Source of the DNA: an uncultured Candidatus Saccharibacteria bacterium
Lineage (GTDB): Bacteria > Patescibacteriota > Minisyncoccia > Phycocordibacterales > Phycocordibacteraceae
Direction: 5' to 3'
Length of the DNA stretch: 64,000 bases
Assembly: GCA_964507275.1 (NCBI GenBank)
Contig: CAZDPG010000001.1
Location: 340,577 to 404,576 of the forward strand
In this document: positions 1,403 to 49,592 of the stretch, piece by piece
How the letters are laid out: each line of letters starts with the position of its first letter
How positions within the stretch are numbered: position 1 is the stretch's first letter
Program-made: the position numbers and the translations under genes
The notes under the pieces: model-generated
Seen by the model: the letters and a program-made list of their open reading frames with translations, nothing else
Told to the model about the DNA's origin: nothing
The model's database searches: none

Positions 1403-2062
1403 TTATATCTTCCCTACCAGATCCAGTCCCGGTTCGAGCGTATCAGAACCTGGTTCCCACGATGCGGGACATACCTGACCCTTATGTGCTTCGACATACT
1501 GCGCCGCCTGTAGTTTGCGGAGTGTTTCAACCCCTTTGCGGCCTATCGAGTTGTCATTGATCTCCATCGCGCGGAGCACCCCGAGAGGATCGATGATGAA
1601 CGTACCGCGGAGTGCGAGCCCTTCGTCTGGTGTGTGCACTGCTTCGCCGCCCTCGACGAGGACGCCGAATGCGTACGCAAGCTTGCCAGAAGGATCGGCC
1701 GCCATCGGATATTCAATCTGTCCGATTGCCGGAGACGCGTCGTGCCATGCCTTGTGTGTGAATACGGTATCTGAAGACACCGAGATGATTTCAGCACCGA
1801 GCGCCTGGAACTTCGGGTACAGCTTCGCGAGCTCCTCGAGCTCGGTCGGACAGACGAACGTGAAGTCGGCAGGATAGAAGACCAGCACGGCCCACTTCCC
1901 GCGGAGCGACGAGAGGCTCATGGTCGTGACTACGTCTTTGTGATACGCCTCGAACTCGAAATCAGGCACCGCTTCGCCCACCTTCACCTGTGAGATATAA
2001 TCCCGCACGGGGTCATGGAACTCGCCGCAGTGTTCGCAATAGTTGCTTTTAGTATCTTTCAT
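1403..2062 (-). CDS. peroxiredoxin (2-Cys Prx/AhpC family) with a short N-terminal Cys-containing extension
   Basis: Thioredoxin-fold Prx motifs FTFVCPTE and a resolving-Cys region. The track ORF was trimmed to MKDTKSNY (ATG 2062) because upstream codons overlap miaA on the other strand. Confidence 0.85.
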   Translation of the reverse strand: MKDTKSNYCEHCGEFHDPVRDYISQVKVGEAVPDFEFEAYHKDVVTTMSLSSLRGKWAVLVFYPADFTFVCPTELEELAKLYPKFQALGAEIISVSSDTVFTHKAWHDASPAIGQIEYPMAADPSGKLAYAFGVLVEGGEAVHTPDEGLALRGTFIIDPLGVLRAMEINDNSIGRKGVETLRKLQAAQYVEAHKGQVCPASWEPGSDTLEPGLDLVGKI

Positions 2063-2086
2063 ACGTGTATTGGTTAGGTAAGAGCT

Positions 2087-2932
2087 ATGATACCATCGCC
2101 GACAATGGGCACACAAATCCTTCTCATCATCGGACCGACCGCGTCCGGCAAATCCTCGCGGGCGGTGGCGGAAGCGCTCGCACGAGGCGGCGAGGTGATA
2201 TCGGTCGACTCGCGCCAAGTCTACCGCGGACTCGATATCGGGACGGAAAAGATAACCGCCGAGGAGATGCGCGGCGTGCCCCATCACCTGATCGACATCC
2301 GCGAGCCAGGACAGACGTATTCCGCGGGCGATTTCGTACACGACGCGACACGGTTGATTTCTGAGATCTCGGCACGAGGAAAATTGCCGATACTCGCTGG
2401 TGGCACGCACTTTTATTTCGACGCGCTCCTCTATGGCCTGCCGATTGGGACTGATGCGAATCATGAGCTCCGCACCGAGCTCGAGAAACTTTCGACTGAA
2501 GAGCTGTATGCGCGCGTCTGCGCTCGGGATGCCCGCCGAGCTGCCGAGCTCGATCCGCAGAACCGGCGGCGACTCATCCGCGCACTTGAGATCATCGAGG
2601 CGAGAGGAACAGTACCGGAAAGAGTTTCGTCTGCACCGGATTACACAGTCGAATGGATTGTCATCGATCCTCCGCGCGAAGAACTGCGGGCACGTATCGA
2701 CGCTCGCATCGAAGAAGCTCGCGCGCGCGGTCTCATAGACGAAGTGCGGCACGTGCGTGAGGCGGTCGGCGAAGCCCGTCTGAATGAGCTCGGTCTTGAG
2801 TACAAAATTGTCGGCGAATACCTGCGCGGAGAAATTATGGAAATAGATCTCCTCCCCACGCTCAAGGCAAAGCTGTGGCAGTACGCACGCCGCCAGAAGG
2901 CGTGGCTGCGCAAGCTAGAACAAACACGTTAA
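2087..2932 (+). CDS. miaA: tRNA dimethylallyltransferase MiaA
   Basis: P-loop IIGPTASGKS, DSRQVYRGLDIGTEK and HHLIDI motifs. The start may instead be M at 2105. Confidence 0.9.
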   Translation: MIPSPTMGTQILLIIGPTASGKSSRAVAEALARGGEVISVDSRQVYRGLDIGTEKITAEEMRGVPHHLIDIREPGQTYSAGDFVHDATRLISEISARGKLPILAGGTHFYFDALLYGLPIGTDANHELRTELEKLSTEELYARVCARDARRAAELDPQNRRRLIRALEIIEARGTVPERVSSAPDYTVEWIVIDPPREELRARIDARIEEARARGLIDEVRHVREAVGEARLNELGLEYKIVGEYLRGEIMEIDLLPTLKAKLWQYARRQKAWLRKLEQTR

Positions 2933-3816
2933 TCAAGACCCGCGTCGCAGCCGCAACCATTCTGTTGCCCTACACTCACATGCAGATGATTCCCTTCGTT
3001 GAGCGAACTTGCTCCGCACTGGTTCGCTATCGTCGCGAGTGCATTCAAATCTCCAGCGAGGTCGACAGCATATGAGGAGCCTGTGCAATTCCGCCCACCA
3101 TAGTGACAGGAGTTAGCGGTGTGGGCGCACCCTATCTTCTTGCCACTCGCTGCACATTGTTCGATGGTGGCCTTGCCGCTCGTGATGGCGCTATCTGAAA
3201 TTGAGGTGATGATGGCATTTTTCGTCAGCTTATCGCTCATGCAAGACAAAAGCCCAGCAAGCGGAACCGATTCGGTAACTACTTGAGCATCTATACCTGG
3301 ATTAAAAGTGAACTTCCCTGCTCCACCGCCGGGAGTAACGCCGAGAGTCGGGATACCGGTCTGCTGAGCCTGGTTCAGGCTCGCCTTGAGAGGAATGCAG
3401 AAGTCGCCGCCGCCCGTCGTGATGAGGTTCGTCCAAGTACTGCCCGCGTCTTTAGGATTGTAGAGCACTGCCATGACGGCATCGACTATCATCCAGCCCG
3501 CAAGCGCGATAACAATACCAGTGACAGTATTCGTGAGGATCTTTTTCGCTGCCTCTTTCCCCCCTGCATTCACCGGATTGAGGACAAAGAGAAAGCCGGA
3601 GTAAGCGATCATCAGCGGCGCGATGAAGACGATGACGATTGTCAGGAGGAAGCTGATGAGGTTATTAATCACGATCATGAGTAATCCCCAGCCTGCCGCG
3701 CACTGGTTATACGCTTCGGGGATGATAGGGCCGAAGAACGGCACTCCTGCGTATGCAAACTGCGGCAGAACGAATGTCCCGAGCAGGAGGATGAATACTG
3801 GAATGCGGAAACGCAT
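2929..3816 (-). CDS. secreted VirB2/TrbC-like (T4SS-pilin-like) two-helix membrane module fused to a Cys-rich C-terminal domain with LAS-type zinc-peptidase-like motifs
   Basis: Signal peptide, then hydrophobic helix, PLMIAYSGF...GGKEAAKKILTNTVTGIVIALAGW, then a second helix. This is the same architecture as the six small paralogs at 16.2-18.4 kb. The C-terminal ~165 aa has about 10 Cys and the motifs SCHYGG...AVDL and EGNHLHVSVG (compare SxH..G.A.D / ExxH or HLH of M15/M23 peptidoglycan peptidases). Confidence 0.55.
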   Translation of the reverse strand: MRFRIPVFILLLGTFVLPQFAYAGVPFFGPIIPEAYNQCAAGWGLLMIVINNLISFLLTIVIVFIAPLMIAYSGFLFVLNPVNAGGKEAAKKILTNTVTGIVIALAGWMIVDAVMAVLYNPKDAGSTWTNLITTGGGDFCIPLKASLNQAQQTGIPTLGVTPGGGAGKFTFNPGIDAQVVTESVPLAGLLSCMSDKLTKNAIITSISDSAITSGKATIEQCAASGKKIGCAHTANSCHYGGRNCTGSSYAVDLAGDLNALATIANQCGASSLNEGNHLHVSVGQQNGCGCDAGLD

Positions 3817-3996: not shown

Positions 3997-4926
3997 ATGG
4001 CGCAAAAGAGCATCCTATTCGTCTGTACCGGAAACATCTTCCGAAGTCTGGCGGCCGAACAAGGTTTCAAGAAATATCTCTTAGACAATGGGATCCCCGG
4101 ATGGCATGTTGGCTCGGCGGGTATCCATGCCGTGCCGCAGGCCGTCGATCCAAAGACGCTGGAGACGCTATGCGAGGTTGGCATTACTGATATCGAGCAC
4201 GAGCAGCGGAAACTCACTCGAGAGATGCTCGAACAGTACGACGTTATCGTCGGTATGGCGCAAGACCATATCGATTTCATGAAATCACAATTCAATTATA
4301 AATACGGCATCCTTTTCAATGAGCTCGCCCAGCACGAAGCAACTTCTGTCCGAGACATAGATGAGGTGCCGGAGTATCAGACGAACCCGCAGGCAGTGGA
4401 GGAAAAGATTGAGTGCACTGTGAAGGACATCGTCGAAAAGATTCCTGCCGTATTCAAAAATGTGACTGAACGTTTCTATCTCTTTAAGAATTTTGCCGAA
4501 GGAAAGACTACTCATCGAAACGGCTACCCGTTCATCACCCTGCACGAAACCCCGCACTCGATTGCCTTCATGTCCATCGACATCCCCTTTAACGAAGACG
4601 GTCATGTTCTCGTAATTCCGAAAGAGAGATACCCAAGCCTCTCGGATATACCGGATGAGACCCTGAAAGATATACTCGCTTCTATCAAGAAGGTGGGTGA
4701 GGCTTTCAGCATCGATCATGGTGGCTACAACGTCCTCCTTAATAACGGACTGGATGCCGGACAATACATCATACACACCCACTTCCACATCATCCCGAGA
4801 CGGAGCGGCGACGGCATCACGATCGAAGGCTGGGAGCGCCCGAAGATCAGCCGTGATGATTTCATACGATTCAACGAGGATCTGAAGCGACAGATAGAGC
4901 AGCTACCCTCCTCGGTGATAGAATAA
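3997..4926 (+). CDS. fusion protein: N-terminal low-molecular-weight protein-tyrosine phosphatase / ArsC-like domain plus C-terminal HIT-family nucleotide hydrolase domain
   Basis: CX5R(S) P-loop ILFVCTGNIFRS and a DP motif at the N-terminus. Histidine-triad GQYIIHTHFHIIPR at the C-terminus. GC looks lower than in the flanks. Confidence 0.7.
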   Translation: MAQKSILFVCTGNIFRSLAAEQGFKKYLLDNGIPGWHVGSAGIHAVPQAVDPKTLETLCEVGITDIEHEQRKLTREMLEQYDVIVGMAQDHIDFMKSQFNYKYGILFNELAQHEATSVRDIDEVPEYQTNPQAVEEKIECTVKDIVEKIPAVFKNVTERFYLFKNFAEGKTTHRNGYPFITLHETPHSIAFMSIDIPFNEDGHVLVIPKERYPSLSDIPDETLKDILASIKKVGEAFSIDHGGYNVLLNNGLDAGQYIIHTHFHIIPRRSGDGITIEGWERPKISRDDFIRFNEDLKRQIEQLPSSVIE

Positions 4927-13157: not shown

Positions 13158-13715
13158 ATGTGGATAGTTGTGCATATTGCTCTACCAGTATGGCATAATC
13201 AATATATGGACCGTCGTCGAACCTGGAACCTTCTACAGCTCCGTAAGGCGGTCAAGACTTCTACGAGCACCCGACAAGTTATCAAGAAACTTGGCCTTGT
13301 TCCTGCTGGAGGTAATTATGTACAAGTTTCTAAAGCAATCAGTGATCAGAAATTGAGTACATCTCATTTCAAGGGACAAGGATGGAACAGAGGGATGAAG
13401 GTCCCTAAGGAGCCGATTTACAAACTGGAAGAGATTTTAGTTCCTAATGGTCACTATAATTCATATCGTCTAAAACAACGTCTCTTCAAGGAGGGGCTTA
13501 AAACAGCGGAATGTGAAGAATGCGGGTGGGCTCAAATGAGCCCCGATGGACGCACACCAGTTGAAATCGACCATATAAATGGAAATCACTCTGATAATCG
13601 AATCGAGAACTTGCGCATCCTCTGCCCCAATTGTCATAGCTTAAAACCCACTCATCGTGGTAAAAATAAGGGTGTCAGCCGGAGTGGCGAAATTGGTCAG
13701 ACGCATCGGGCTTAA
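13158..13715 (+). CDS. free-standing HNH homing-endonuclease-like protein (AT-rich insert); its 3' end overlaps the downstream tRNA-Leu
   Basis: HNH motif ECEECGW...VEIDHINGNHSDNRIENLRILCPNCHS. Markedly AT-rich compared with the flanks. The true start is probably MDRRRTW at 13206. Confidence 0.75.
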   Translation: MWIVVHIALPVWHNQYMDRRRTWNLLQLRKAVKTSTSTRQVIKKLGLVPAGGNYVQVSKAISDQKLSTSHFKGQGWNRGMKVPKEPIYKLEEILVPNGHYNSYRLKQRLFKEGLKTAECEECGWAQMSPDGRTPVEIDHINGNHSDNRIENLRILCPNCHSLKPTHRGKNKGVSRSGEIGQTHRA

Positions 13716-14093: not shown

Positions 14094-15437
14094 ATGTTCA
14101 AGGAGATTCTAATCATCGGCGGGCTGGTGGTGGTAATCGCCATTCTGACGCTCGCCATAATCCTGCTACTGTCGAATCTTGGCGCTTACTTCACAAAGAT
14201 AGCCCAGGGCACGACGGTCTTCATCAGTGCCGGCGAAAGCCTGCAGGACATCCTGCCGAATATCGGCGGATACAGAATGTCCAATGATCAAGACATCGAC
14301 GGGCGTCATTGGCTCGTCGCGGAAGCAACTGAAGAAAAGAGGCTCGCCGCGTTTTTCCACAACGCTCAGAAAGGAACCGTATGGTTTCAAAAATGGCTTT
14401 GGAAAAAATTCGGTGTAAAGCTCATCAGCTTGTTCTGGCCCCACACCAATGTCCATTCGTTCGACATACGGAAAGGAGGCCGGAGGAGGATTGAAGCACG
14501 CACAGAAGTCGGGCCTGAAGCCCCTCTCCGATCCCGCGTGATAGATTCACCTGAAAAAAGCACCCTTGTCAGTTCCCTTCTCTTCATGGTGCCTCGACCG
14601 ATATATGTGGAGGGAATCGAGCTTGCGGGGGACAACTCAAGAATCAACCTTCTGCTTCTTCCCGTCTTCCGACAGGTCATCCCGGCCTTACCGGTGTATT
14701 ACCTCAAGGGCGACTTCTTCACCCTGATTGATGCGGCCGTAGAAGCCGCCATGGTCGATTTTTTCGCCCGACACCGCGTAGCGGTGTATAAGGATGGTGA
14801 GAAAAAGGGGCAGTTTGCTATGGACTCCTACGAGTCCTCGCAAGCGGAACACGAGGAGAGCCCCCTGACCTACTCCCTCTGGCTAAAGCTCACCAAGGCT
14901 GGTGAAGGATCGCCGATGGAGAAGAAACTTCGCAATCTCAACGTAAGCAAAGAGTATCTTGCCAAGTTGAAGGCGGATGGGGGAAAGGAGGAGCTTGTCG
15001 ATTACATCAAAAAACACCTGATTGTCGGTGAGCCAACCGACGTGCCATCGGCGAGCGCAATCTCTGGGATGATTCCAAACGGAATTGTCCCTCGATTCGG
15101 GTTCGCCTTGGTAAGTTTCAGAGTAGTCGAATGGGAAGCTCACAAGAGCACGGTCGCTCTAGCTGAATCTCTTCTGGCAAAGGAAATAGAGCTTCACACG
15201 GCAGAAGGCGTTCGGCAGAAGGCAATCGGGGAAGGGGCCGCTATCCTAGAGCGATCTGCGGCGGAATCAAGCCGTTATGAGCGGCTCTTGAAAGCCCTCG
15301 TCGACAAGGGAGTAACTCCAGATGTCGCTGCCCAAGTCATAGCAACACAGCTCCGGACGGAAAACATCCGGGATGGCAAAGTCACAACCTATGTCGAAGG
15401 GGCGGCGTCGGCCACAGTGATGGTTCCTACCGCCTGA
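14094..15437 (+). CDS. hypothetical membrane-anchored protein (N-terminal TM; helical C-terminal region faintly SPFH/band-7-like)
   Basis: 447 aa ORF with RBS-like aaggag upstream. No confident motif. Confidence 0.4.
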   Translation: MFKEILIIGGLVVVIAILTLAIILLLSNLGAYFTKIAQGTTVFISAGESLQDILPNIGGYRMSNDQDIDGRHWLVAEATEEKRLAAFFHNAQKGTVWFQKWLWKKFGVKLISLFWPHTNVHSFDIRKGGRRRIEARTEVGPEAPLRSRVIDSPEKSTLVSSLLFMVPRPIYVEGIELAGDNSRINLLLLPVFRQVIPALPVYYLKGDFFTLIDAAVEAAMVDFFARHRVAVYKDGEKKGQFAMDSYESSQAEHEESPLTYSLWLKLTKAGEGSPMEKKLRNLNVSKEYLAKLKADGGKEELVDYIKKHLIVGEPTDVPSASAISGMIPNGIVPRFGFALVSFRVVEWEAHKSTVALAESLLAKEIELHTAEGVRQKAIGEGAAILERSAAESSRYERLLKALVDKGVTPDVAAQVIATQLRTENIRDGKVTTYVEGAASATVMVPTA

Positions 15438-15464
15438 ACCTCGACACAACAAGGAGGGTGCAAT

Positions 15465-16112
15465 ATGAAGTTCTTACTTACTGCGGCCATATCTCTGGCC
15501 GCGATTGCCCTGTTTCTTGGGGTGGTGAACATGCTTAAATCAAGGAAGCAAACAGGAAATGGCGATGGGTGGTGGTCCATGAAATACTTATGGGTCATTC
15601 CCCTCATCCTCGTCGGTGTTGCAATCTTCTACTTTGGGGTAAATCCATTGGGCTGGAAGTCGCCAAGTCTTGTGGATGTGGTTGCCATGAAGAACGCTTA
15701 CTGGTTCCACATCCTCATCGTCCTCGGCGTTGTCTACTTTCTCGCCGCCCGTTCGGAAGAAAAAGTGGCGAAGGAAACGGCAACCGCTGTCCTGGCAATC
15801 TCGGCATTCATGCTCTTCATCGGGTTCCCGGTGTGGGTGTGGGTCACAGGACCGAGCACGGCAGTAGCCGCAAGCGAAGCACGAGTGCTCTCGATGCCGC
15901 CTGGCGGGAAGTCAGCACGCATTCCCGTTCCGTACCAAAAGCAAGTCGTGATGGATGGGAAAGACTTCCGCTATCACTGCGTGTATCAGGACGGACGCGA
16001 GGAGTCATTCGGGGAAGGAGAGCGTCCGTGTACGAGCGGCAACCTGCCGTTCGTCTACGCGACGAACCTCCGGGAGAAGGAAAGTAATGTGGTCACCTAC
16101 TCCTACAAGTAA
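15465..16112 (+). CDS. hypothetical polytopic membrane protein
   Basis: 215 aa with about 4 predicted TM helices, then a soluble tail. Ends at a bidirectional terminator. Confidence 0.4.
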   Translation: MKFLLTAAISLAAIALFLGVVNMLKSRKQTGNGDGWWSMKYLWVIPLILVGVAIFYFGVNPLGWKSPSLVDVVAMKNAYWFHILIVLGVVYFLAARSEEKVAKETATAVLAISAFMLFIGFPVWVWVTGPSTAVAASEARVLSMPPGGKSARIPVPYQKQVVMDGKDFRYHCVYQDGREESFGEGERPCTSGNLPFVYATNLREKESNVVTYSYK

Positions 16113-16184: not shown

Positions 16185-16457
16185 TTAGTGACCGGTTATT
16201 TTCGTAATCGGCGTAATGCCGAATGTGCCGAGCGCGAGATTGATGAGACCGTAGGCACCGAAGATGATCACGAGCCCGACGAGACCCCAGAGGATGGCAC
16301 TACGCCCTTCGACCCGCTTCCCTTCGTCACCCGCGTGAACGATGAACTCGAATACGCCCCAAAGAAACGCCACGAATGCAGTCGCCGCAAGAAGCAGGAT
16401 AATCGGGTTGATTATCTGCACGACAACCTTCTCAAGAAATGTTTCGAGGACTGGCAT
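16185..16457 (-). CDS. VirB2/TrbC-like pilin paralog 6 (no signal peptide)
   Basis: Shares IINPIILLLAATAFVAFLWG...EGKRVEGRSAILWGLVGLVIIFGAYGLIN with its neighbours. Starts 0 nt after paralog 5. Confidence 0.6.
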   Translation of the reverse strand: MPVLETFLEKVVVQIINPIILLLAATAFVAFLWGVFEFIVHAGDEGKRVEGRSAILWGLVGLVIIFGAYGLINLALGTFGITPITKITGH

Positions 16458-16835
16458 TTAGCCGCCAATCTGGACACCAGCTTTCGGTGTACCGCCTGAT
16501 ACGCCCGACGTATTGCTGAAGCTGACCGTGCCCGTGAGGATGTTGACGAGACCCCAGACAGAAACCATCACGAAGAAACCGATGAGACCCCAGAGCATGA
16601 GGTTCTTGCCCTTCTCCTTCACGTCATCAGAGTTAGCTCCCAGGATGAACGTCGTGAACGCACCCCAGATGAAGACGATAAACGCGACCGCGAAGAGTAC
16701 CGGAACGAGCACGTTGTTAATGATATTGATAATGAAAGAACCGACGTCTGCGATGTTCCCTATCGCGGCATATGAGATGAGTGGCAAAGCGAAGGCGGCG
16801 AATGTTCCAGTGGTCAGGGCGAGAGCTTTTTTCAT
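16458..16835 (-). CDS. VirB2/TrbC-like pilin paralog 5 (signal peptide plus two helices)
   Basis: MKKALALTTGTFAAFALPLISYAA signal peptide. IINIINNVLVPVLFAVAFIVFIWG...KEKGKNLMLWGLIGFFVMVSVWGLVN. Confidence 0.65.
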   Translation of the reverse strand: MKKALALTTGTFAAFALPLISYAAIGNIADVGSFIINIINNVLVPVLFAVAFIVFIWGAFTTFILGANSDDVKEKGKNLMLWGLIGFFVMVSVWGLVNILTGTVSFSNTSGVSGGTPKAGVQIGG

Positions 16836-16925
16836 AGAATGAGTGAACGGTTAATAGAGTAATTGTAGCCTGTGGGCGATACGGGTCAATGCACCTGTGT
16901 CCGACGTGTGGATAAGCCGAGCTTC

Positions 16926-17291
16926 CTAAAGGGTTGGGTAGTTCGGGGCCGTCCCTCCGGCTGAGAGACCGAACGTGCTTCCTACGACCGCGACGAGGCC
17001 CCACATCGAGAGTATGACGACGAACCCAATGATGCCCCAGAAGACGAAGTCCCGACCTTCCTTGCGCGATTCTTCTTTGGTCGCACCGAGGATGAAGTAT
17101 TTATATACGCCCCAGAGGAACGTCAAGAACGCGAGGGCGAAGAGTACCGGCACGAACACGTTGTTGATGATATTGATGATGCTCGAAGAATACCCAGTAA
17201 CGATACCCATATTGATGCCCGTACCTTGGGCAGACGCGAGAAGAGGGGCAGCAAACGTAAGCGGTGCGATGAGCCAGGAGATCTTTTTCAT
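16926..17291 (-). CDS. VirB2/TrbC-like pilin paralog 4
   Basis: Trimmed to MKKISWLIAPLTFAAPLLASAQG (signal peptide). IINIINNVFVPVLFALAFLTFLWG...RKEGRDFVFWGIIGFVVILSMWGLV. Confidence 0.65.
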   Translation of the reverse strand: MKKISWLIAPLTFAAPLLASAQGTGINMGIVTGYSSSIINIINNVFVPVLFALAFLTFLWGVYKYFILGATKEESRKEGRDFVFWGIIGFVVILSMWGLVAVVGSTFGLSAGGTAPNYPTL

Positions 17292-17296
17292 ACTTC

Positions 17297-17740
17297 CTAA
17301 TACGATCGCGGCAATTGAGGCGCACCAGCACCAGTAAGTCCGAAAGTGTTTGCGACGACATTCACGAGACCCCAGAGCGACACCATCACGACGAACCCTA
17401 TGAGGCCCCAAAGAACCAGCTTATGCCCTTCTTCAACCTCGCCCGGCTCACCATGAGAAAAGATGTACGCTTTGGCGATGCCGTACAGGAACGTGAGGAA
17501 TGCAACCGCGAAGAGTACTGGCACGAGGATGCCATTTATGATGTAGAGGATTGTGGAAGCGACGCAGCCGATACCGCCGGAACATGCACCGAAAAACGGT
17601 CCCGATGCTGAGATAAAGCCGTATGAATAGCCGGTGTTTACCGTCTGCGGACCGCCACCGACCCCGACCGTCTGCGCGAGCGCGAGCGCGGGAGTGAGAA
17701 ACACAGCAAGCGATGCGAGGATACGAGCGGGTATTTTCAT
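17297..17740 (-). CDS. VirB2/TrbC-like pilin paralog 3 (Gly/Cys-containing N-terminal extension)
   Basis: Trimmed to MKIPARILASLAVFLTPALALAQ (ATG 17740). ILYIINGILVPVLFAVAFLTFLYG...EEGHKLVLWGLIGFVVMVSLWGLVN. Confidence 0.65.
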   Translation of the reverse strand: MKIPARILASLAVFLTPALALAQTVGVGGGPQTVNTGYSYGFISASGPFFGACSGGIGCVASTILYIINGILVPVLFAVAFLTFLYGIAKAYIFSHGEPGEVEEGHKLVLWGLIGFVVMVSLWGLVNVVANTFGLTGAGAPQLPRSY

Positions 17741-17759
17741 ATGCGATAAGTATGACACA

Positions 17760-18029
17760 CTACACGCCTGATGCGATGCCGAGCGTGGATAACAGTATCT
17801 TGACGAAGCTCCAGACTGAGAGGAGTACGACAATGCCGATGATGCCCCAGAAGACGAACTGCCGGCCCTCGGCACGTTTCTCTTCACTGCCGCCATGGAA
17901 GAAGAAATAGTTTGCCACACCCCAAATGAACACAGCGAAGGAGAGCGAGAAGATAATCGGCACGATGACAAGATTGATGACGCCGATAATCCCGCTCGAG
18001 CTGCCGCCAATGAATTGCGCGAAGGTCAT
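17760..18029 (-). CDS. VirB2/TrbC-like pilin paralog 2 (no signal peptide)
   Basis: VINLVIVPIIFSLSFAVFIWG...KRAEGRQFVFWGIIGIVVLLSVWSFV. Starts 3 nt after paralog 1. Confidence 0.6.
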   Translation of the reverse strand: MTFAQFIGGSSSGIIGVINLVIVPIIFSLSFAVFIWGVANYFFFHGGSEEKRAEGRQFVFWGIIGIVVLLSVWSFVKILLSTLGIASGV

Positions 18030-18032
18030 GAA

Positions 18033-18440
18033 TTATCCGCCGAGCGACTTCACCGTCGCCTGGATGGCCAGCGATATAGCCTTGGCACCCAAGAGGACGA
18101 GCGCACCGATAATCGTCCAGAGGAGCATATTCTTGGCTTCGTTGAGCTTCGTATCGCTTCCCTGTGCTACGACGAACTTGTACCCGACGAATACGAGCAT
18201 CAGGATGATAGCAATAGAGCCGATGCGGATGATGAACTCGAGGATGCTTGTGAGGAACGATTCGAGACTCGTACCCGACTTGAGCGGATTCATGAGCGTG
18301 ACACTCGACCCGGTGTTCTGGCCTCCGGTGAGCTCATAGCCCCCCGTGTTCTGGCCGCCACCAAGAGAGACTGCATGCGCCGCGACCGCCCCGACGGAAA
18401 GCGATGAGAGGAAAACGAGTGCAATGAGTAGTGATTTCAT
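18033..18440 (-). CDS. VirB2/TrbC-like pilin paralog 1 (signal peptide, Gly-rich linker, two helices)
   Basis: MKSLLIALVFLSSLSVGAVAAHA signal peptide. ILEFIIRIGSIAIILMLVFVGYKFVVAQGSDTKLNEAKNMLLWTIIGALVLLGAKAI is a classic TrbC/VirB2-type pilin core. Confidence 0.65.
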   Translation of the reverse strand: MKSLLIALVFLSSLSVGAVAAHAVSLGGGQNTGGYELTGGQNTGSSVTLMNPLKSGTSLESFLTSILEFIIRIGSIAIILMLVFVGYKFVVAQGSDTKLNEAKNMLLWTIIGALVLLGAKAISLAIQATVKSLGG

Positions 18441-18441
18441 A

Positions 18442-19752
18442 TTATTTTTGCAGAAGAGATGAGAGTGAACCCTCGCTGAGCGTGAGCGCCATGCCAGGAT
18501 CGAGACGGCCGCTTATCACACCGGTAATCATACTTGAGAAGATAGGATCCGTAGCGGCAGGCAGTGGGGACAACCATCCCTTGGCATACAGCGCCTCGGC
18601 ATACGCAACGGTGGCAATCGGATCGGCTGGTACGGTCGCCAACTGATTCAGGGTCGCTGGAGCGAGTCCGGTCAAGGTTGCGGCGGAGATCTGGGGAGCC
18701 GAGCCCGTGAGGAACGCAGCCGCCAGGTACGCCCCGGAAGCGTTCTTCGCACCGCGGGGAATCATGAACGAGTAAACGAGCCCATAGGCACTCTTCAAGT
18801 TCGCTGTCGCTGGCTGCGGGAGTGGCGATACGATGAAACTGAGATTCGGGTTTGCCGACCTGAGGAATCGAGCCTCAGAGACGTAGCCGAGATAGAGCGC
18901 GAGATCTCCAGCGAGGAATGCTTGCTGCGAGTTCTGGAGCGATGCATTCCAGGTATAGGAGACCTTCGATGGGTCAGCAAACTGCGTATAGAAGTTGAGA
19001 ACGGCCTGCCCCGGTGTTGCGTTATCGGAAGAAGCTCCGCTTAGATTGGCAGCGAGTTCGCCATTCATATACACAGAGAGCGGAATGCCTGTCTGAAGGA
19101 AGAGCGAGGAGAGGATGCCGCGTGCATTACGAACATTTTCGTAGGTACCAAGTGCGATGAGCCCGCGAGTGACCTGTTTCGTCGGAGTAATCTGGGCGAC
19201 ATGCGGCACGAGACCAGTGAGTGCCTCCCATGTCTCCGGAGGCTTCGCAACGCCACTCGACGCGAGGATAGACTGATTCGAGAACAGCACAAGCGGATCG
19301 ACGAGAAATGGCAGGCCGTAATAGCCCACTCCGTCTGGCGTGGCGAGCATCTTCCCTTCTTCGATAAAAGCGTTGTTGAACGCCGACACCGGGAGCGTCG
19401 AGAATGGTATTGGCACGATGATCTTCGTGAGCGCGTGCAGTTCTTCCTGTGAAGTAAGGACCAGGTCAGGAGCCTCACCGACCGCTATCGCAGCAGCGAG
19501 GTCTGAAGCAACCGTGCTTCGATCCTTCTGCACATAGGAAACATCTTTCATGGACTCCTCCGCCTGCGCGACCGCAATGAGGACGGCCTGCATATCCGCT
19601 TTCGGGAGCGTGCCCCAAATGACGACCGTGCCGATTGCGGTGTTGCCTGCGCGAGAAGCATCACCGGTGTGTGTCGCGAAGACGTAGAGACCAATCATCG
19701 CTCCGAGACCGAAGACACCGAACAAAATTCCTTGGAAGAGAGATATTTTCAT
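18442..19752 (-). CDS. membrane-anchored extracellular solute-binding protein (SBP family 1-like), orphan
   Basis: N-terminal TM anchor. SBP-1-like segments GTVVIWGT, YYGLPFLVDPLVLFSNQ, PETWEAL, AFLAGDLALYLGYVSE. No adjacent ABC permease or ATPase. Stop is 1 nt before the pilin paralog 1 start. Confidence 0.5.
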   Translation of the reverse strand: MKISLFQGILFGVFGLGAMIGLYVFATHTGDASRAGNTAIGTVVIWGTLPKADMQAVLIAVAQAEESMKDVSYVQKDRSTVASDLAAAIAVGEAPDLVLTSQEELHALTKIIVPIPFSTLPVSAFNNAFIEEGKMLATPDGVGYYGLPFLVDPLVLFSNQSILASSGVAKPPETWEALTGLVPHVAQITPTKQVTRGLIALGTYENVRNARGILSSLFLQTGIPLSVYMNGELAANLSGASSDNATPGQAVLNFYTQFADPSKVSYTWNASLQNSQQAFLAGDLALYLGYVSEARFLRSANPNLSFIVSPLPQPATANLKSAYGLVYSFMIPRGAKNASGAYLAAAFLTGSAPQISAATLTGLAPATLNQLATVPADPIATVAYAEALYAKGWLSPLPAATDPIFSSMITGVISGRLDPGMALTLSEGSLSSLLQK

Positions 19753-46026: not shown

Positions 46027-47823
46027 TTATGCGTCGTTCTGCACCATCTTCATGAAGACCTCTTCCGGGATGTTGACCTTCCCTGTCCCCCGCTCGAGCA
46101 TCTTCTTCTTCCCTCGCTTTTGCTTATCGAGAAGTTTGTTCTTGCGCGACACGTCGCCGCCATAGAGATAGCCCGTAACATCTTTACGCATCGCGGAAAG
46201 CGTCTTTGATGCGATGATGCGTCCTTGTGCGCGTGCCTGAATCTTCGTGACGAAAAGCTGCTTCGGCAGGGTCGCATGTAACTTCTCGACCATCTTCTCG
46301 GCCTCTTCTTGGATCCGACGACGGGCGACCACACGGGCGAACGCTGGCACTGGTTCTTCGGCGACCAATATATCGAGCCGCACCACGTCAGCCGGACGTT
46401 CCGGCAGAATCTCATACGAGAGCGACGCGTATCCTGAAGAGATATTCTTGAGAGTGTCGAAGAAGCCACGCATGAGCTCACGAAGCGGCATCTCGACGAT
46501 CATTTCGACACGGCCATCCTCATACGTCTCCGTGCTCTGTGTCTGCGCTTCATGCTCATACAGGAGCTGGATGAGCGCTGAGAGCGAATCTGGCGGGATG
46601 ATGATGGTAACTTTCGCCCACGGCTCTTCGATGAGCGTGATCAAACCGAACTCAGGAAACTTCGCTGGCGTGTATACGACCTCTCGGACCCCGCTCGTAT
46701 TCGTCACGGCATAGGAGATCGTCGGAATCGTGACGATGAGCGCGAGACCGAACTCCCGGCGTAAGCGTTCCGTGACAATCTCCAGATGCAGGAGGCCGAG
46801 GAACCCACAGCGGAATCCTCTGCCAAGCACGCCTGACGACTCCTCTTCGAAAGAGAGCGATGAATCGGAGAGCCGCAACCGCTCGAGCGATTGACGCAGG
46901 AGCGGGAGGTCATCCTGACTCTCCGGGTAGATTGATGCCCAGACGACAGGACGCGGGCGCTCATAATCCTCCAGGGCCGGGAGTGTGCCCTTCACCGCGC
47001 CTATGGTATCGCCCACCGCGACGACGCCCGGCTCTTTGATACCCGTCACGATATACCCTATTTCGCCGGCAGAGAGAGAATCGGCAGGAGTCTCTTCTGG
47101 CGTGAAGATACCGGTCTCAAGCGCGATGAATTCTTTTCCGGCAGCGCGGAAAACGAGTGGCTGGCCTTTCTTAAAAGTGCCATCGAAAACACGTAGATAC
47201 ACTGCAACGCCGCGATGCTTGGAATATGAGAAATCGAAGACGAGTCCGCGTGGTTCGTCGCCAGCGACCGGCGATGAATCATGTGGCGGCGGGATGCGCT
47301 CTATGATTGCGGCAAGCAGCTCTTCAACGCCTGCGCCCGTCTTCCCTGATACAGCAATCACCTGGTCCTTCGAGACGTTGATGAGCTTTGCGAGTTCGTT
47401 TGAGACGACATCGACGCGCGCGGCAGGAGAATCAATCTTCGAGACGACCGGGATGATGACGCACCCCTGGGCCTGCGCCATCGCGAGCGTAGTAAGCGTC
47501 TGCGCCTGTACCCCCTGCGTTGAATCCACCAAGAGGAGCACTCCTTCGACCGCCTTCAGCGCACGCGAAACTTCGTACGAGAAATCGATATGTCCGGGCG
47601 TATCGATGAGGTTCAGCGTGTAGTCGCCATAGCGCATACGGACCGGCTGCATCTTGATAGTGATGCCGCGCTCACGCTCGAGATCCATACGATCAAGCAC
47701 CTGATCGCGCATCTTGCGCTCAGGGATCGCACCGGTTCGCTCGAGCAGGCGATCAGCAAGCGTCGACTTGCCATGGTCGACGTGCGCGATGATAGAAAAA
47801 TTTCGGATATCCTTTTGGTTCAC
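46027..47823 (-). CDS. lepA: elongation factor 4 (LepA)
   Basis: IRNFSIIAHVDHGKSTLADRLL, DTPGHIDF and the LepA-specific C-terminal domain. Confidence 0.95.
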   Translation of the reverse strand: MNQKDIRNFSIIAHVDHGKSTLADRLLERTGAIPERKMRDQVLDRMDLERERGITIKMQPVRMRYGDYTLNLIDTPGHIDFSYEVSRALKAVEGVLLLVDSTQGVQAQTLTTLAMAQAQGCVIIPVVSKIDSPAARVDVVSNELAKLINVSKDQVIAVSGKTGAGVEELLAAIIERIPPPHDSSPVAGDEPRGLVFDFSYSKHRGVAVYLRVFDGTFKKGQPLVFRAAGKEFIALETGIFTPEETPADSLSAGEIGYIVTGIKEPGVVAVGDTIGAVKGTLPALEDYERPRPVVWASIYPESQDDLPLLRQSLERLRLSDSSLSFEEESSGVLGRGFRCGFLGLLHLEIVTERLRREFGLALIVTIPTISYAVTNTSGVREVVYTPAKFPEFGLITLIEEPWAKVTIIIPPDSLSALIQLLYEHEAQTQSTETYEDGRVEMIVEMPLRELMRGFFDTLKNISSGYASLSYEILPERPADVVRLDILVAEEPVPAFARVVARRRIQEEAEKMVEKLHATLPKQLFVTKIQARAQGRIIASKTLSAMRKDVTGYLYGGDVSRKNKLLDKQKRGKKKMLERGTGKVNIPEEVFMKMVQNDA

Positions 47824-49526
47824 GGTTGAGTTGGTTCTTCGGCAGAAGGAGGAAGTGCTGTGGACTGCTCTTCCGGAGATCTGATGAGCCGGAGGAGCGC
47901 GTTCGTCACAATGCGGAATTCCTCATTCTCGACGAGGAAAAGCGCACACGCAGCAGCCGCAAGACCTACGATACCAGCGATGAGGCCTTGTGTGAAGACG
48001 GCCGCAAGCGTCGTGAGTGGCGCGATGCCACCCTCGAATGCGAGGACAGCATACGCAGCAATCCCCCCAGCAACTGCGGCGAGAAAACCATCGGCGAGCG
48101 ACCGCGTGAGCATACGTCCCAGACCTGGTGCAACGCTCCGGAGGGCGAGCAAGGAAAGAAGCGCAAGAAATACTTGCCCGAGCGTCACCGCAAGCGCGAG
48201 CAGTAATATCTCCGTCCCAGGAATATCTGCCACCTTGAGGAGCGAGGAGAGCGATGCGAGCAAGCCATCGCTCGGCATTGCCAAGAATGTCATGGCGAGA
48301 AGCACCGTCAATACGCCACCGAGAATCTGATACACAAGCGGGCGCCATGATTGTCGTGCTGCATAGAGCGCACGAGAGAACAGAAGAACGATTCCTTGTG
48401 CGACGAGGCCAACCGCAAGGAGTGCGAGAAGCGCCGCTGTGAGGCGTGTCGCGTTCCAGTCGAATGCACCCGTTCCGAGGACGACACGCACGAGATGAGC
48501 GCGCAGCACCGCGATGAGTCCGAGCGACACTATCGACCAGAGGATGATGTGCCGCGCGCTGGCAGAAAGAATACGCGTGAACTCTTCCTTCTTTTCGAGA
48601 GCCGATGCTTCGGAAAGTGCAGGGAACGCTGCAACGGCATACGAAGAGCCGATGAGAGCGAGTGGGACTGTTTCGAGATTGCTTGCGAACGTGAAGACGG
48701 ACACCGATCCGGTACCGATCCGAGATGCCATCGCCGTGAGGACAAGCGCTGTGACCGAGCCGACGCCAAGCGCGAGTGAGCGCGGGATGGAATCGCGAAC
48801 AATCGAAGACATCAGACTCATGCTTGGGAGACGGAAGCGTGGTAAGACGTCTGCGGCGACCACAACCGGGATATTTACCGCGAGATACGCGATGGCACCG
48901 AGAATGACACCAATCCCAATCCCAGGCAGGCCCCAGAGCGGGTAGAGCACGACCGCCCCCACAATGATTCCCAGGTTATAGAGAACCGGCGAGATCGCAA
49001 AGAGCAAGAAGCGGCGATGCACTTGCGTCACGCTCCCAAGCACACCTGATAGACCGAGCAATATAGGCTGGAACAGGAGCATCCGCGCGAGCAGTACGAA
49101 CTCGGCGTAGTGCGGCGACGTCGCGAAGCTCGGGTAGAGAAACTCGAGGAACTGCGGCATGAAGAAACCGAGGATGATACAAAAGACCCCGCCGACCACG
49201 AACAGGAACGTTGCCGATTCGGAAAGGATCCGACGCGTCATATCCCTATCCATGCCCGTTATACGCGGTATGAGCACGTATGCGCTCACGAGTGAGGACA
49301 CTAGCGCAAATACGAGATCTGGCACGCGAAACGCGGCATAATACAAGTCGAGTTCTTGCCCGGCACCGAACGTATGGGCGAAGGTCCTATCGCGTAGGAG
49401 CGCGAGTACCTGTGAAGCGAGCGTAAGCGCAGCGAGTAGGTACGCCGCTTGATGAAGACTACGTATAGGCCGCATAACAAGCCCGCGTACCGGTGCAGCG
49501 ATACGCTCGAAAATCTGCCGAATCAT
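47820..49526 (-). CDS. murJ: lipid II flippase MurJ
   Basis: About 14 TM helices with MurJ/MviN N-terminal signature ...ASQVLALLRDRTFAHTFGAG..LDLYYAAFRVPD. Start ambiguous (49475-49553); the upstream hairpin suggests one of the internal Met codons. Confidence 0.75.
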   Translation of the reverse strand: MIRQIFERIAAPVRGLVMRPIRSLHQAAYLLAALTLASQVLALLRDRTFAHTFGAGQELDLYYAAFRVPDLVFALVSSLVSAYVLIPRITGMDRDMTRRILSESATFLFVVGGVFCIILGFFMPQFLEFLYPSFATSPHYAEFVLLARMLLFQPILLGLSGVLGSVTQVHRRFLLFAISPVLYNLGIIVGAVVLYPLWGLPGIGIGVILGAIAYLAVNIPVVVAADVLPRFRLPSMSLMSSIVRDSIPRSLALGVGSVTALVLTAMASRIGTGSVSVFTFASNLETVPLALIGSSYAVAAFPALSEASALEKKEEFTRILSASARHIILWSIVSLGLIAVLRAHLVRVVLGTGAFDWNATRLTAALLALLAVGLVAQGIVLLFSRALYAARQSWRPLVYQILGGVLTVLLAMTFLAMPSDGLLASLSSLLKVADIPGTEILLLALAVTLGQVFLALLSLLALRSVAPGLGRMLTRSLADGFLAAVAGGIAAYAVLAFEGGIAPLTTLAAVFTQGLIAGIVGLAAAACALFLVENEEFRIVTNALLRLIRSPEEQSTALPPSAEEPTQP

Positions 49527-49551
49527 GTCTTCTATAATACTCCGAAGCGGC

Positions 49552-49592
49552 AAAAAGAGGCACCCTCGCTTTACGAGGGTGCCTCTTTTTCT
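49552..49592 (-). terminator. hairpin terminator (aaaagaggcaccctcg...cgagggtgcctcttttt)
   Basis: Perfect 16 bp stem with T-runs on both sides, just downstream of the stop of the 49603-52059 gene. Confidence 0.6.

Follow-up and report, generated by a model that had tools for sequence, protein, structure and literature searches.

The stretch of DNA analysed here (the window) comprises 64,000 nucleotides of contig CAZDPG010000001.1, positions 340,577 to 404,576, from an uncultured Candidatus Saccharibacteria bacterium. Its list of open reading frames (ORFs) contains, on the minus strand, a gene with an ATG start for a protein of 295 aa, in which a signal peptide and a two-helix hairpin resembling VirB2-like pilins are linked by a tether to a cysteine-rich C-terminal domain (the head) with the Hedgehog/DD-peptidase (LAS) fold (Table 1). 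The 3' end of the gene overlaps the convergent miaA gene by 4 nt, and the identical 4-nt overlap is found in locus L001. The neighbouring genes, in the window as in orthologs down to 42% identity, are of the housekeeping type and specify ClpB, L33, miaA, peroxiredoxin, ParB, RelA/SpoT, TopA and DprA. An earlier note on this DNA had read the ORF as a pilin module fused to a domain with zinc-peptidase-like motifs. The ORF was confirmed, as were the motifs quoted there: PLMIAYSGF (residues 67-75), GGKEAAKKIL (85-94), GIVIALAGW (100-108), SCH (236-238), AVDL (250-253) and EGNHLHVSVG (274-283).

Table 1. Features of the fusion gene and the small pilin array in the window (HMM, hidden Markov model; pLDDT, predicted local distance difference test).
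Feature	Residues	Positions	Strand	Basis or remark
Whole gene, fusion of pilin hairpin and Hedgehog/DD-peptidase-fold domain	1-295	2929..3816	(-)	stop codon 2929-2931
Signal peptide (Sec-type; n-region MRFR, hydrophobic core, predicted cleavage between AYA and G)	1-23	3748..3816	(-)	model helix 4-20, segment composition
Extracytoplasmic N-terminal segment, predicted (IPFFGPIIP...C39)	24-43	3688..3747	(-)	conservation
Hydrophobic helix 1 of VirB2-like hairpin	44-79	3580..3687	(-)	model helix 43-79, PF18895 alignment, hhalign
Short loop NPVNAGGKEAAKKILT (3 Lys, 1 Glu), predicted cytoplasmic	80-95	3532..3579	(-)	model turn 80-83, charge count
Hydrophobic helix 2 of hairpin	96-119	3460..3531	(-)	model helix 84-119
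Post-membrane segment (invariant W128, C140) and Pro/Gly-rich disordered tether (141-165)	120-165	3322..3459	(-)	pLDDT, identity
Disulfide-rich Hedgehog/DD-peptidase-fold (LAS) domain, putative Zn2+ peptidoglycan peptidase	166-295	2932..3321	(-)	
H232...S236-C237-H238 (CAHTANSCH); H238 predicted first Zn ligand	232-238	3103..3123	(-)	Desert hedgehog alignment HHAQDSLHYEGR, conservation
D252 (SYAVD), predicted second Zn ligand, beta-strand 250-254	252	3061..3063	(-)	conservation, hhalign, model
E274-G-N-H277-L-H279; H279 predicted third Zn ligand, H277 predicted catalytic, Glu upstream	274-279	2980..2997	(-)	Desert hedgehog alignment, conservation
Six tandem small PF18895 (VirB2-like) pilin genes, paralogous to the fusion hairpin		16185..18440	(-)	Pfam, six-frame HMM scan, hhalign

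The ORF is real and not a product of chance, because 472 database proteins match its product (E ≤ 1e-3), many of them over the full length at 42-99% identity (approximately 78 of the 120 homologs listed). Its start Met coincides with the starts of the homologs in the alignment and, where the source is named, all homologs stem from metagenome-assembled genomes (MAGs) of the candidate phyla radiation (CPR), or Patescibacteria (Paceibacteria, Kaiserbacteria, Parcubacteria). When 1.8 billion proteins were searched with a profile of the C-terminal domain alone, 644 cluster representatives were retrieved, each with the domain at its C-terminus, and 138 of the best 150 of these proteins carry the hairpin, the exceptions being mostly fragments. 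The same fusion, for which a search in related genomes had been proposed, is therefore present in many of them. When species-representative genomes were scanned for the C-terminal domain, 105 loci were found, of which 80 were used for the locus analyses. These 80 belong almost all to the CPR (Paceibacteria, Kaiser-, Moran-, Falkow-, Vogel-, Azam-, Komeili-, Gribaldo- and Kuenenbacteria), and the hairpin was detectable in 68 of the 81 head ORFs of the species-representative loci. At three loci from MAGs labelled archaeon or Altiarchaeota (L036, L043, L045) the LAS-fold head follows straight after the signal peptide, without the hairpin. These proteins have 262-969 aa and reflect either contamination during binning or a transfer to archaea. 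A tblastn search of the window found no second copy of either module except the distant small pilins of the array. Several matches were rejected: whole-protein phmmer matches to bovine ultralong-CDR antibodies (E ~1e-3) reflect Cys/Gly-rich composition, the Pfam matches 7TM_GPCR_Srsx, DHHC, Yip1 and DUF1345 reflect hydrophobic-helix bias, and a seemingly long family member of 1236 aa (L075) spans masked Ns, is an artefact of ORF calling and was left unused.

The N-terminal module was modelled with AlphaFold2 from an alignment of 33 sequences. The model contains helices at residues 4-20, 43-79 and 84-119, the hairpin helices being joined by NPVN, at a pLDDT of 82-89, and thus has the signal peptide and two-helix hydrophobic hairpin with a short polar loop expected of PF18895. 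According to the AxA rule, the signal peptide would be cleaved after AYA. In the segment that follows, P26, G29, P30 and I31 are near-invariant and C39 is invariant in the homolog alignment. A beta-bridge between residues 41 and 140 brings C39 beside C140 in the model, which suggests a disulfide staple joining the external ends of the hairpin. Under the positive-inside rule, the three Lys and one Glu of the loop would place the loop in the cytoplasm and the ends of the hairpin, hence also the C-terminal domain, outside. For the VirB2 and TraA pilins a topology with both termini external is established. Residues 147-165 of the tether have a pLDDT below 50.

The PF18895 profile scored 16.7 bits with the whole query protein and 20.0 bits (E 7e-4) with its N-terminal half, over residues 50-114. 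Orthologs exceed the Pfam gathering cut-off of 26.6 bits (P0086, 35.4 bits; L016, 43.6 bits), and 92 of 97 diverse proteins with the same C-terminal domain match the profile (best 3e-11). A hhalign comparison of the N-module alignment with the small pilins of the window (five of the six array members, each scoring above the Pfam cut-off, were aligned) gave 95.9% probability (E 5.3e-9, 70 columns). The TrbC/VirB2 profile PF04956 is matched by 20 of the 97 same-head proteins at E ≤ 0.05 (best 4.7e-6), and L016 reaches 26.1 bits with it (cut-off 27.9); the query gave no match to it. Hence, in the designation as a VirB2/TrbC-like pilin proposed earlier, the affiliation with PF18895 pilins stands through the array pilins and the relatives. 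Neither the N-module profile nor that of the small pilins matched a pilin of solved structure by sequence, and Foldseek matched none either, so the link to VirB2 proper stays profile-based. We conclude that, at the profile level, the N-terminal hairpin is homologous to the PF18895 (VirB2-like) pilins. Among 79 full-length sequences (the query and 78 homologs) mean pairwise identity is 63% in the hairpin (residues 44-119), 59% in the catalytic domain and 30% in the linker, and the array pilins, at 34%, lie well under the value for the fusion hairpin.

The C-terminal domain was modelled from residues 136-295 with a 45-sequence alignment. Block-mean pLDDT values of 95-97 over fragment residues 41-150 (protein residues 176-285) indicate that the C-terminal half is a separate, confidently folded domain in the model. 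It is also Cys-rich, as had been noted: of the ten Cys residues (39, 140, 192, 221, 230, 237, 244, 267, 288, 290) nine lie within the C-terminal 165 aa. The predicted fold is the one characteristic of LAS or Hedgehog/DD-peptidase proteins, in which helices pack against one side of a central antiparallel sheet and the metal cleft lies on the opposite side. Its nearest structural neighbour is ShhN; the list of fold matches includes the phage L-Ala-D-Glu endolysins Ply500 (6.9) and LysB4 (6.8), with LdcB and the T5 and RB49 endolysins lower. The M15, VanY, M74 and HH_signal profiles matched neither the query nor the 45 + 97 family members, and the PHROG endolysin families did not match the head either. 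An M23-type peptidase (lysostaphin/LytM, with HxxxD and HxH on a beta-rich fold, PF01551), which had been offered as an alternative, was rejected.

The head residues align with the Hedgehog zinc motif SLHYEGR / NHVHVSV. In the alignment with Desert hedgehog, aHaanSCHYGGr stands over HHAQDSLHYEGR and nhlHvsv over NHVHVSV, and H232 is the counterpart of the Hedgehog His six residues upstream of the ligand His. The protein contains only four His residues (232, 238, 277, 279), all within the putative metal site. Among 224 family domains H238 is kept in 223, D252 and H279 in 222 each, H232 in 221, H277 in 220 and E274 in 194, and a set of 97 representatives, 30-57% identical, shows no variation at H238, D252, H277 and H279. 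The H-X-H motif and nearby Glu of the LAS fold are thus present. We infer that H238, D252 and H279 bind zinc and that peptidoglycan is the substrate. The distance between H238 and D252 is 13 residues in the query and 12-18 (mode 13), never 6, across the 224 domains. A hhalign alignment with the SxH..G.D / HY motifs of the VanY-like heads described below pairs His with His, Asp with Asp, His with His and the terminal CxC, and leaves a 7-residue gap exactly at RNCTGSS; therefore, the extra length between His and Asp corresponds to an insert that carries C244. Co-loss of Cys residues across the family domains suggests C237-C290 and C244-C288 as candidate disulfide pairs. Thus, of the LAS-type motifs recognized earlier, the near-invariant residues of SCH...AVD and E..HLH and the fold held up, but the His-Asp spacing is non-canonical and no M15 profile matches; the disulfides envisaged there likewise have candidates, namely the two co-loss pairs and C39-C140.

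Approximately 40 of the 120 closest homologs listed match the query only over residues 1 to ~160 (50-85% identity) and then diverge fully. Clustering of the heads among these 120 proteins gave nine types. The LAS-fold type of the query accounts for 79 proteins without any Pfam match, followed by SLT_3/SLT lysozyme-like heads (22, several of them at or above the Pfam cut-off), the P0076 type (7, no Pfam match), VanY-like heads with SAYR / SNHSTGIGVD / HY motifs (5, weak VanY matches below the cut-off), CHAP-like heads (2, also weak and below the cut-off), the P0088 type (2, no Pfam match), and the single proteins P0103 and P0087 (no Pfam match) and P0082 (canonical SLT, 84 bits). A relationship between the LAS-fold head and the third of these types, the P0076 group, was rejected (hhalign 1.8%). 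The three swapped alleles with fetched neighbourhoods all sit in the slot of the query, ClpB-(L33)-[gene]-miaA-Prx-ParB. When the VanY-head locus L011 was compared with the window, the DNA was 80% identical upstream and through the N-module to approximately residue 156 and 88-92% identical across miaA and the peroxiredoxin gene, and ~500 bp of head-coding DNA had no similarity (745-1253 in L011, 2932-3350 in the window). The heads have thus been exchanged cleanly, as cassettes, by recent recombination that broke within the tether. The family shows the conserved N-module, unrelated C-terminal domains and sharp junction of polymorphic effectors; a cognate immunity gene directly downstream is absent, the stop codon overlapping the convergent miaA.

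Heads also occur in combination. P0130 and P0203 are triple fusions of hairpin, SLT and LAS head, some same-head proteins have Glucosaminidase or 3D domains added, and both arrangements pair a glycosidase with a peptidase, as is the logic of enzymes that degrade cell walls. In L004 a pilin-SLT gene, a gene for a 164-aa anchored protein and a pilin-LAS-head gene form one operon. Membrane-anchored proteins of 164-191 aa directly follow SLT-type alleles, and only these (L004, 9442-9936; L009, 11003-11578) and occur in 20 of the 80 loci (e.g. L020, 1180-1716), mostly in the miaA context; the window has no counterpart. Two copies examined are 36% identical (E 2e-30). This accessory protein may inhibit the lysozyme-like head, confer immunity to it or act as its partner.

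Twelve of the 80 species loci, which belong to other CPR lineages, have the fusion gene 0.5-1.5 kb downstream of, and in the same direction as, a gene for a VirB4-type ATPase (P-loop_TraG 96.7 bits, AAA_10, DUF87). These operons are conserved and encode, in order, a 2-TM (transmembrane) VirB3/PrgI-like protein, a ~225-aa protein, VirB4, a small protein with several TM segments, a ~330-aa anchored protein, the fusion protein and a ~400-aa anchored protein. In five virB4 loci examined, the fusion was the sole hairpin protein detected by HMMs within ~6 kb, although small pilins of divergent sequence may escape such HMMs. An N-terminally anchored protein of ~380-415 aa (weak DUF5050) adjoins the fusion gene, before or after it, in virB4 operons (L082, 6409-7617; L080, 6439-7647; L044, 6383-7621; and 17 other loci); since 11 of the 12 virB4 loci contain it, it is a conserved, unannotated member of the neighbourhood of the CPR type IV secretion system (T4SS). 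In L041 and L044, ORFs with DnaA-like N-termini and then a DnaN-like ORF, recognized from N-terminal sequences only, lie 2-4 kb downstream of the fusion gene, consistent with a report that T4SS genes of the CPR are placed close to the origin of replication (PMC12102498).

Taken together, we consider it somewhat better than an even bet (a probability of roughly 0.55) that the gene encodes a membrane-tethered, extracytoplasmic, Zn-dependent LAS-fold peptidoglycan peptidase that is targeted by its VirB2-type hairpin to the site of T4SS or pilus assembly and plays a VirB1-like role. After Sec export and cleavage, the hairpin would reside in the cytoplasmic membrane with its ends out and its Lys-rich loop in, the C39-C140 disulfide stapling the two external ends, and the ~25-residue Pro/Gly tether would hold the 130-residue, multiply disulfide-bonded Hedgehog/DD-peptidase domain. 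H238, D252 and H279 would bind Zn2+, H277, E274 and H232 would activate water and stabilise the transition state, and a peptide bond in the peptidoglycan stem or cross-link would be cut. If the conserved hairpin directs the enzyme to the place in the membrane at which the CPR T4SS or VirB2-like pilus is assembled, cutting of the wall would be local, and the peptidase head would take the place of an SLT head in VirB1-like 'space making' or wall breaching; the query head would be one allele of a cassette family on a common anchor. The fusion of the same N-module to SLT/SLT_3 heads, and to weakly matched VanY-like and CHAP-like ones, supports a peptidoglycan context for the head. MurJ is encoded at 47820-49553 in the window, and the organism makes peptidoglycan. 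A role with the T4SS is supported by the virB4 linkage in other lineages, and we infer such a link for this organism as well.

Several points weigh against this interpretation. ShhN is better known as a ligand than as an enzyme. No Pfam, NCBIfam or PHROGs profile matched the head in the query and its 45 + 97 relatives, Desert hedgehog came first in a profile search of PDB sequences at an E of 0.4, which is not significant, and the hhalign match to the VanY-like heads is weak (27% probability, E 7e-4). The LAS-defining H-X(6)-D motif is absent, H-X13-D standing in its place. The query itself remains under the gathering cut-off of PF18895. Its gene lies alone among housekeeping genes: no T4SS gene adjoins it in the window, where the neighbours are miaA, peroxiredoxin, ParB, a phosphatase-HIT fusion, L33 and ClpB, no VirB4-like or T4SS ATPase is found among the large ORFs of the window, and none of the 22 miaA-context loci (the window and its clade) has virB4 within 6-10 kb.

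The fusion may alternatively be an evolved pilin that the T4SS polymerises into, or places at the tip of, a VirB2-type pilus made of the array pilins, so that the head is displayed towards the host wall, to which it attaches and which it locally digests, head swapping tracking the wall chemistry of the host. We regard this as possible, though clearly the less favoured account. Because both termini of a VirB2 hairpin are external, a C-terminal head would come to lie on the outside of the fibre, and the constraint on the hairpin (63% identity) goes beyond the need of a plain anchor. Nine head types on one N-module, with the tether breakpoint between genomes whose flanks are 88-92% identical, are typical of proteins of inter-organism conflict. 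The detection of the fusion as the only hairpin protein near five virB4 genes also fits a pilus component, tempered by the limited reach of the HMMs mentioned above. The T4SS and its pilin array are essential for epibiotic growth of Ca. Southlakia (PMC10633639, PMC12857230). However, a pilin with a 130-aa globular C-terminal domain may not be able to polymerise, the query allele is not followed by an immunity-like gene, and the gene occurs as a single copy that has been inherited vertically, in synteny with its housekeeping neighbours. Moreover, with its 25 residues the tether can extend as far as the cell's own wall, so that a pilus is not required. By analogy with the evolved VgrG/PAAR proteins of the type VI secretion system, one may tentatively picture a pilus-incorporated or capping display module with interchangeable wall-degrading heads that opens the host wall. 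If that were true, cassettes would be exchanged between strains to fit host wall chemistry, and the fusion would be the missing VirB1 function of CPR T4SSs. The earlier note, whose architectural reading was right and whose interpretation is partly supported overall, had suggested a pilus-tip effector that breaches the host wall; such an effector is possible, favoured by head swapping and virB4 linkage, with the lone housekeeping setting against it or neutral.

It is doubtful that the protein is instead a housekeeping autolysin, in which the pilin-derived hairpin is merely an anchor and the enzyme remodels the cell's own wall during growth or division, or by carboxypeptidase-type trimming, without any secretion system. 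The M15 enzymes VanY, LdcB, MepA and MepK are classic housekeeping wall enzymes, and both the conserved neighbourhood from ClpB to TopA and the lack of virB4 at all miaA-context loci would suit such a function. Yet at least 12 other species have members of the same family within their virB4 operons, replacement at one locus by enzymes of other bond specificity (glycan versus peptide) would be odd for a dedicated housekeeping step, and the hairpin is no less conserved (63%) than the enzyme domain (59%). Finally, a non-catalytic head that uses its zinc cleft to bind the stem peptide or a host surface glycan or protein, as a Hedgehog-N-like adhesin, is very unlikely: the cleft could be blocked or given another shape by the H-X13-D insert, but all catalytic-type residues are retained (H277 in 98%, H232 in 99% and E274 in 87% of the domains), whereas Drosophila Hh is devoid of the D/H motif residues and of the E177 equivalent (PMC6027127), and the sister heads at or above the Pfam gathering score are enzymes (SLT), the VanY and CHAP matches lying below the cut-off.

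The six small pilin-like paralogs that had been noticed 13 kb away form the tandem array listed in Table 1. Five of the ORFs score 31-39 bits with PF18895, all above the gathering cut-off, and a six-frame HMM scan revealed the sixth (17763-18032), which is concealed by a longer ORF with a TTG start in a different frame. The array pilins are 19-47% identical to one another, and there is no virB4 near the array in the window. The array is flanked (14094-16112 on the plus strand, 18442-19752 on the minus strand) by membrane proteins without Pfam match (447 aa and 215 aa) and a solute-binding protein. An HNH endonuclease ORF (13158-13715, plus strand) occupies the stretch of lowest G+C content in the window (12-14 kb, 0.51 versus ~0.56) and may be a small mobile or homing element. 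Next to the fusion gene, between it and L33, the window encodes a low-molecular-weight phosphotyrosine phosphatase-HIT fusion of 309 aa (3997-4926, plus strand), in a slot that is empty or filled by a pilin-SLT pair in other genomes. On the other side, the listed 449-aa ORF at 1403-2752 (minus strand) is over-extended from an upstream GTG; its C-terminal ~200 aa are a 1-Cys/2-Cys peroxiredoxin, which has 202-241 aa in syntenic loci.

T4SS-associated wall hydrolases, LAS-fold peptidases and the VirB2-like pilins of the CPR are each already known, as is a protein of Hedgehog/DD-peptidase fold beside virB4 in Southlakia. What is new is that fusion of a pilin hairpin to an enzyme-type head is the rule in a CPR-wide head family without Pfam, NCBIfam or PHROG profile, together with the H-X13-D, Cys-rich variant of the LAS site and the swapping of wall-degrading heads, in the manner of cassettes, at one conserved locus. 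No description of a pilin-hydrolase fusion emerged from searches of the literature, and the 'Pam pilus' of a 2026 preprint is an unrelated donor-strand-exchange pilus. CPR bacteria depend on a T4SS and VirB2-like pilin arrays for their host-borne life, and most of their genomes seemed to be without VirB1 (PMC12102498, PMC12857230, PMC10633639). The fusions supply candidates for how the apparatus crosses the cell wall, its own or that of the host. Where 'pilins' of CPR genomes are counted by profile, enzymes are included, and the head family, essentially restricted to the CPR, would add a divergent, disulfide-stapled branch to the Hedgehog/DD-peptidase superfamily.

The LAS superfamily comprises MEROPS family M15 (the Zn DD-peptidase of Streptomyces albus, 1lbu, VanX, VanY, LdcB and the Ply500, LysB4 and T5 endolysins), M74 (MepA), and Hedgehog-N with the bacterial Hh-like proteins. 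The metal-site motif of LAS and Hedgehog proteins is defined in PMC6027127. The head shares with this superfamily a (predicted) extracytoplasmic location and the His...Asp...His-X-His metal and catalytic residues on equivalent structural elements. It differs in matching no M15, VanY or HH_signal profile, in a His-Asp spacing of 12-18 instead of 6 with a Cys-bearing insert, in its eight conserved Cys and C-terminal CxC tail, and in being fused to a pilin hairpin; unlike the VanY-like sister heads it has an ISSISDS strand where these have SxYR/SGYR. With the PF18895 pilins the protein has in common a signal peptide, two hydrophobic helices and a short charged loop. In contrast to the array pilins of ~90-150 aa, it is no stand-alone pilin but a protein of 295 aa with a tether and a 130-aa head, and it is encoded outside the array and away from virB4 in this genome. 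VirB2-like pilin arrays of 2-11 genes occur in Patescibacteria, whose T4SSs are MPF-FATA-like and unique in having such arrays, and most pilin-bearing genomes are without a recognisable VirB1 (PMC12102498).

A precedent for the favoured interpretation is SEML1_0007 of Ca. Southlakia epibionticum, a hypothetical protein which is encoded directly downstream of a VirB4/TraC homolog and has an ECOD Hedgehog/DD-peptidase assignment at residues 951-1105 (PMC10633639, PMC12102498). It is located close to a PF18895 pilin array and was scored growth-defective/essential (PMC10633639). The two proteins, compared here by table annotation, differ in that SEML1_0007 has 1113 aa and a large unassigned N-terminal region. 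In the sister fusions of PF18895 with PF18896 (SLT_3) or PF01464 (SLT), e.g. P0079, P0085, P0109 and P0082, the N-module shows 58-70% identity to that of the query, reaching as far as residue 144-202. One of the SLT_3-type head cluster, P0107, occupies the same ClpB-L33-[gene]-miaA slot in L009 as the query does in the window. The SLT sister heads are likewise Cys-rich and extracytoplasmic but are lysozyme-like glycosidases, often followed by the accessory gene for a 164-191-aa protein that the window is missing.

In monoderm bacteria, VirB1-type hydrolases (PrgK of pCF10, TraG of pIP501, TcpG, CwlT) combine an N-terminal anchor with an SLT or muramidase domain and a CHAP or LytM peptidase. 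Background on VirB1 proteins is given in PMC12102498. The fusion resembles them as a membrane-anchored, predicted extracytoplasmic wall hydrolase that is encoded with virB4 in many relatives, and the order anchor-SLT-peptidase in P0130 and P0203 recalls their TM-SLT-CHAP arrangement. It departs from them in that the anchor is a VirB2-like hairpin and not a single TM helix, the peptidase is of LAS fold and not CHAP or M23, and the query allele has neither a glycosidase domain nor T4SS linkage in the window; an SLT/lysozyme or CHAP domain homologous to those of VirB1, TrsG or CD419 is absent from the query head, SLT being present only in sister alleles and in the triple fusions.

VgrG/PAAR proteins with C-terminal effectors and the swapping of CdiA-CT and Rhs-CT toxins offer a functional analogy and not a homology. 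Compared with these polymorphic toxins, the query allele is without a cognate immunity gene, and the heads identified by profiles are all wall hydrolases, four of the nine head types having no profile match. What the two share is a conserved N-terminal structural or delivery module followed, beyond a sharp junction breakpoint, by swappable enzymatic C-termini.

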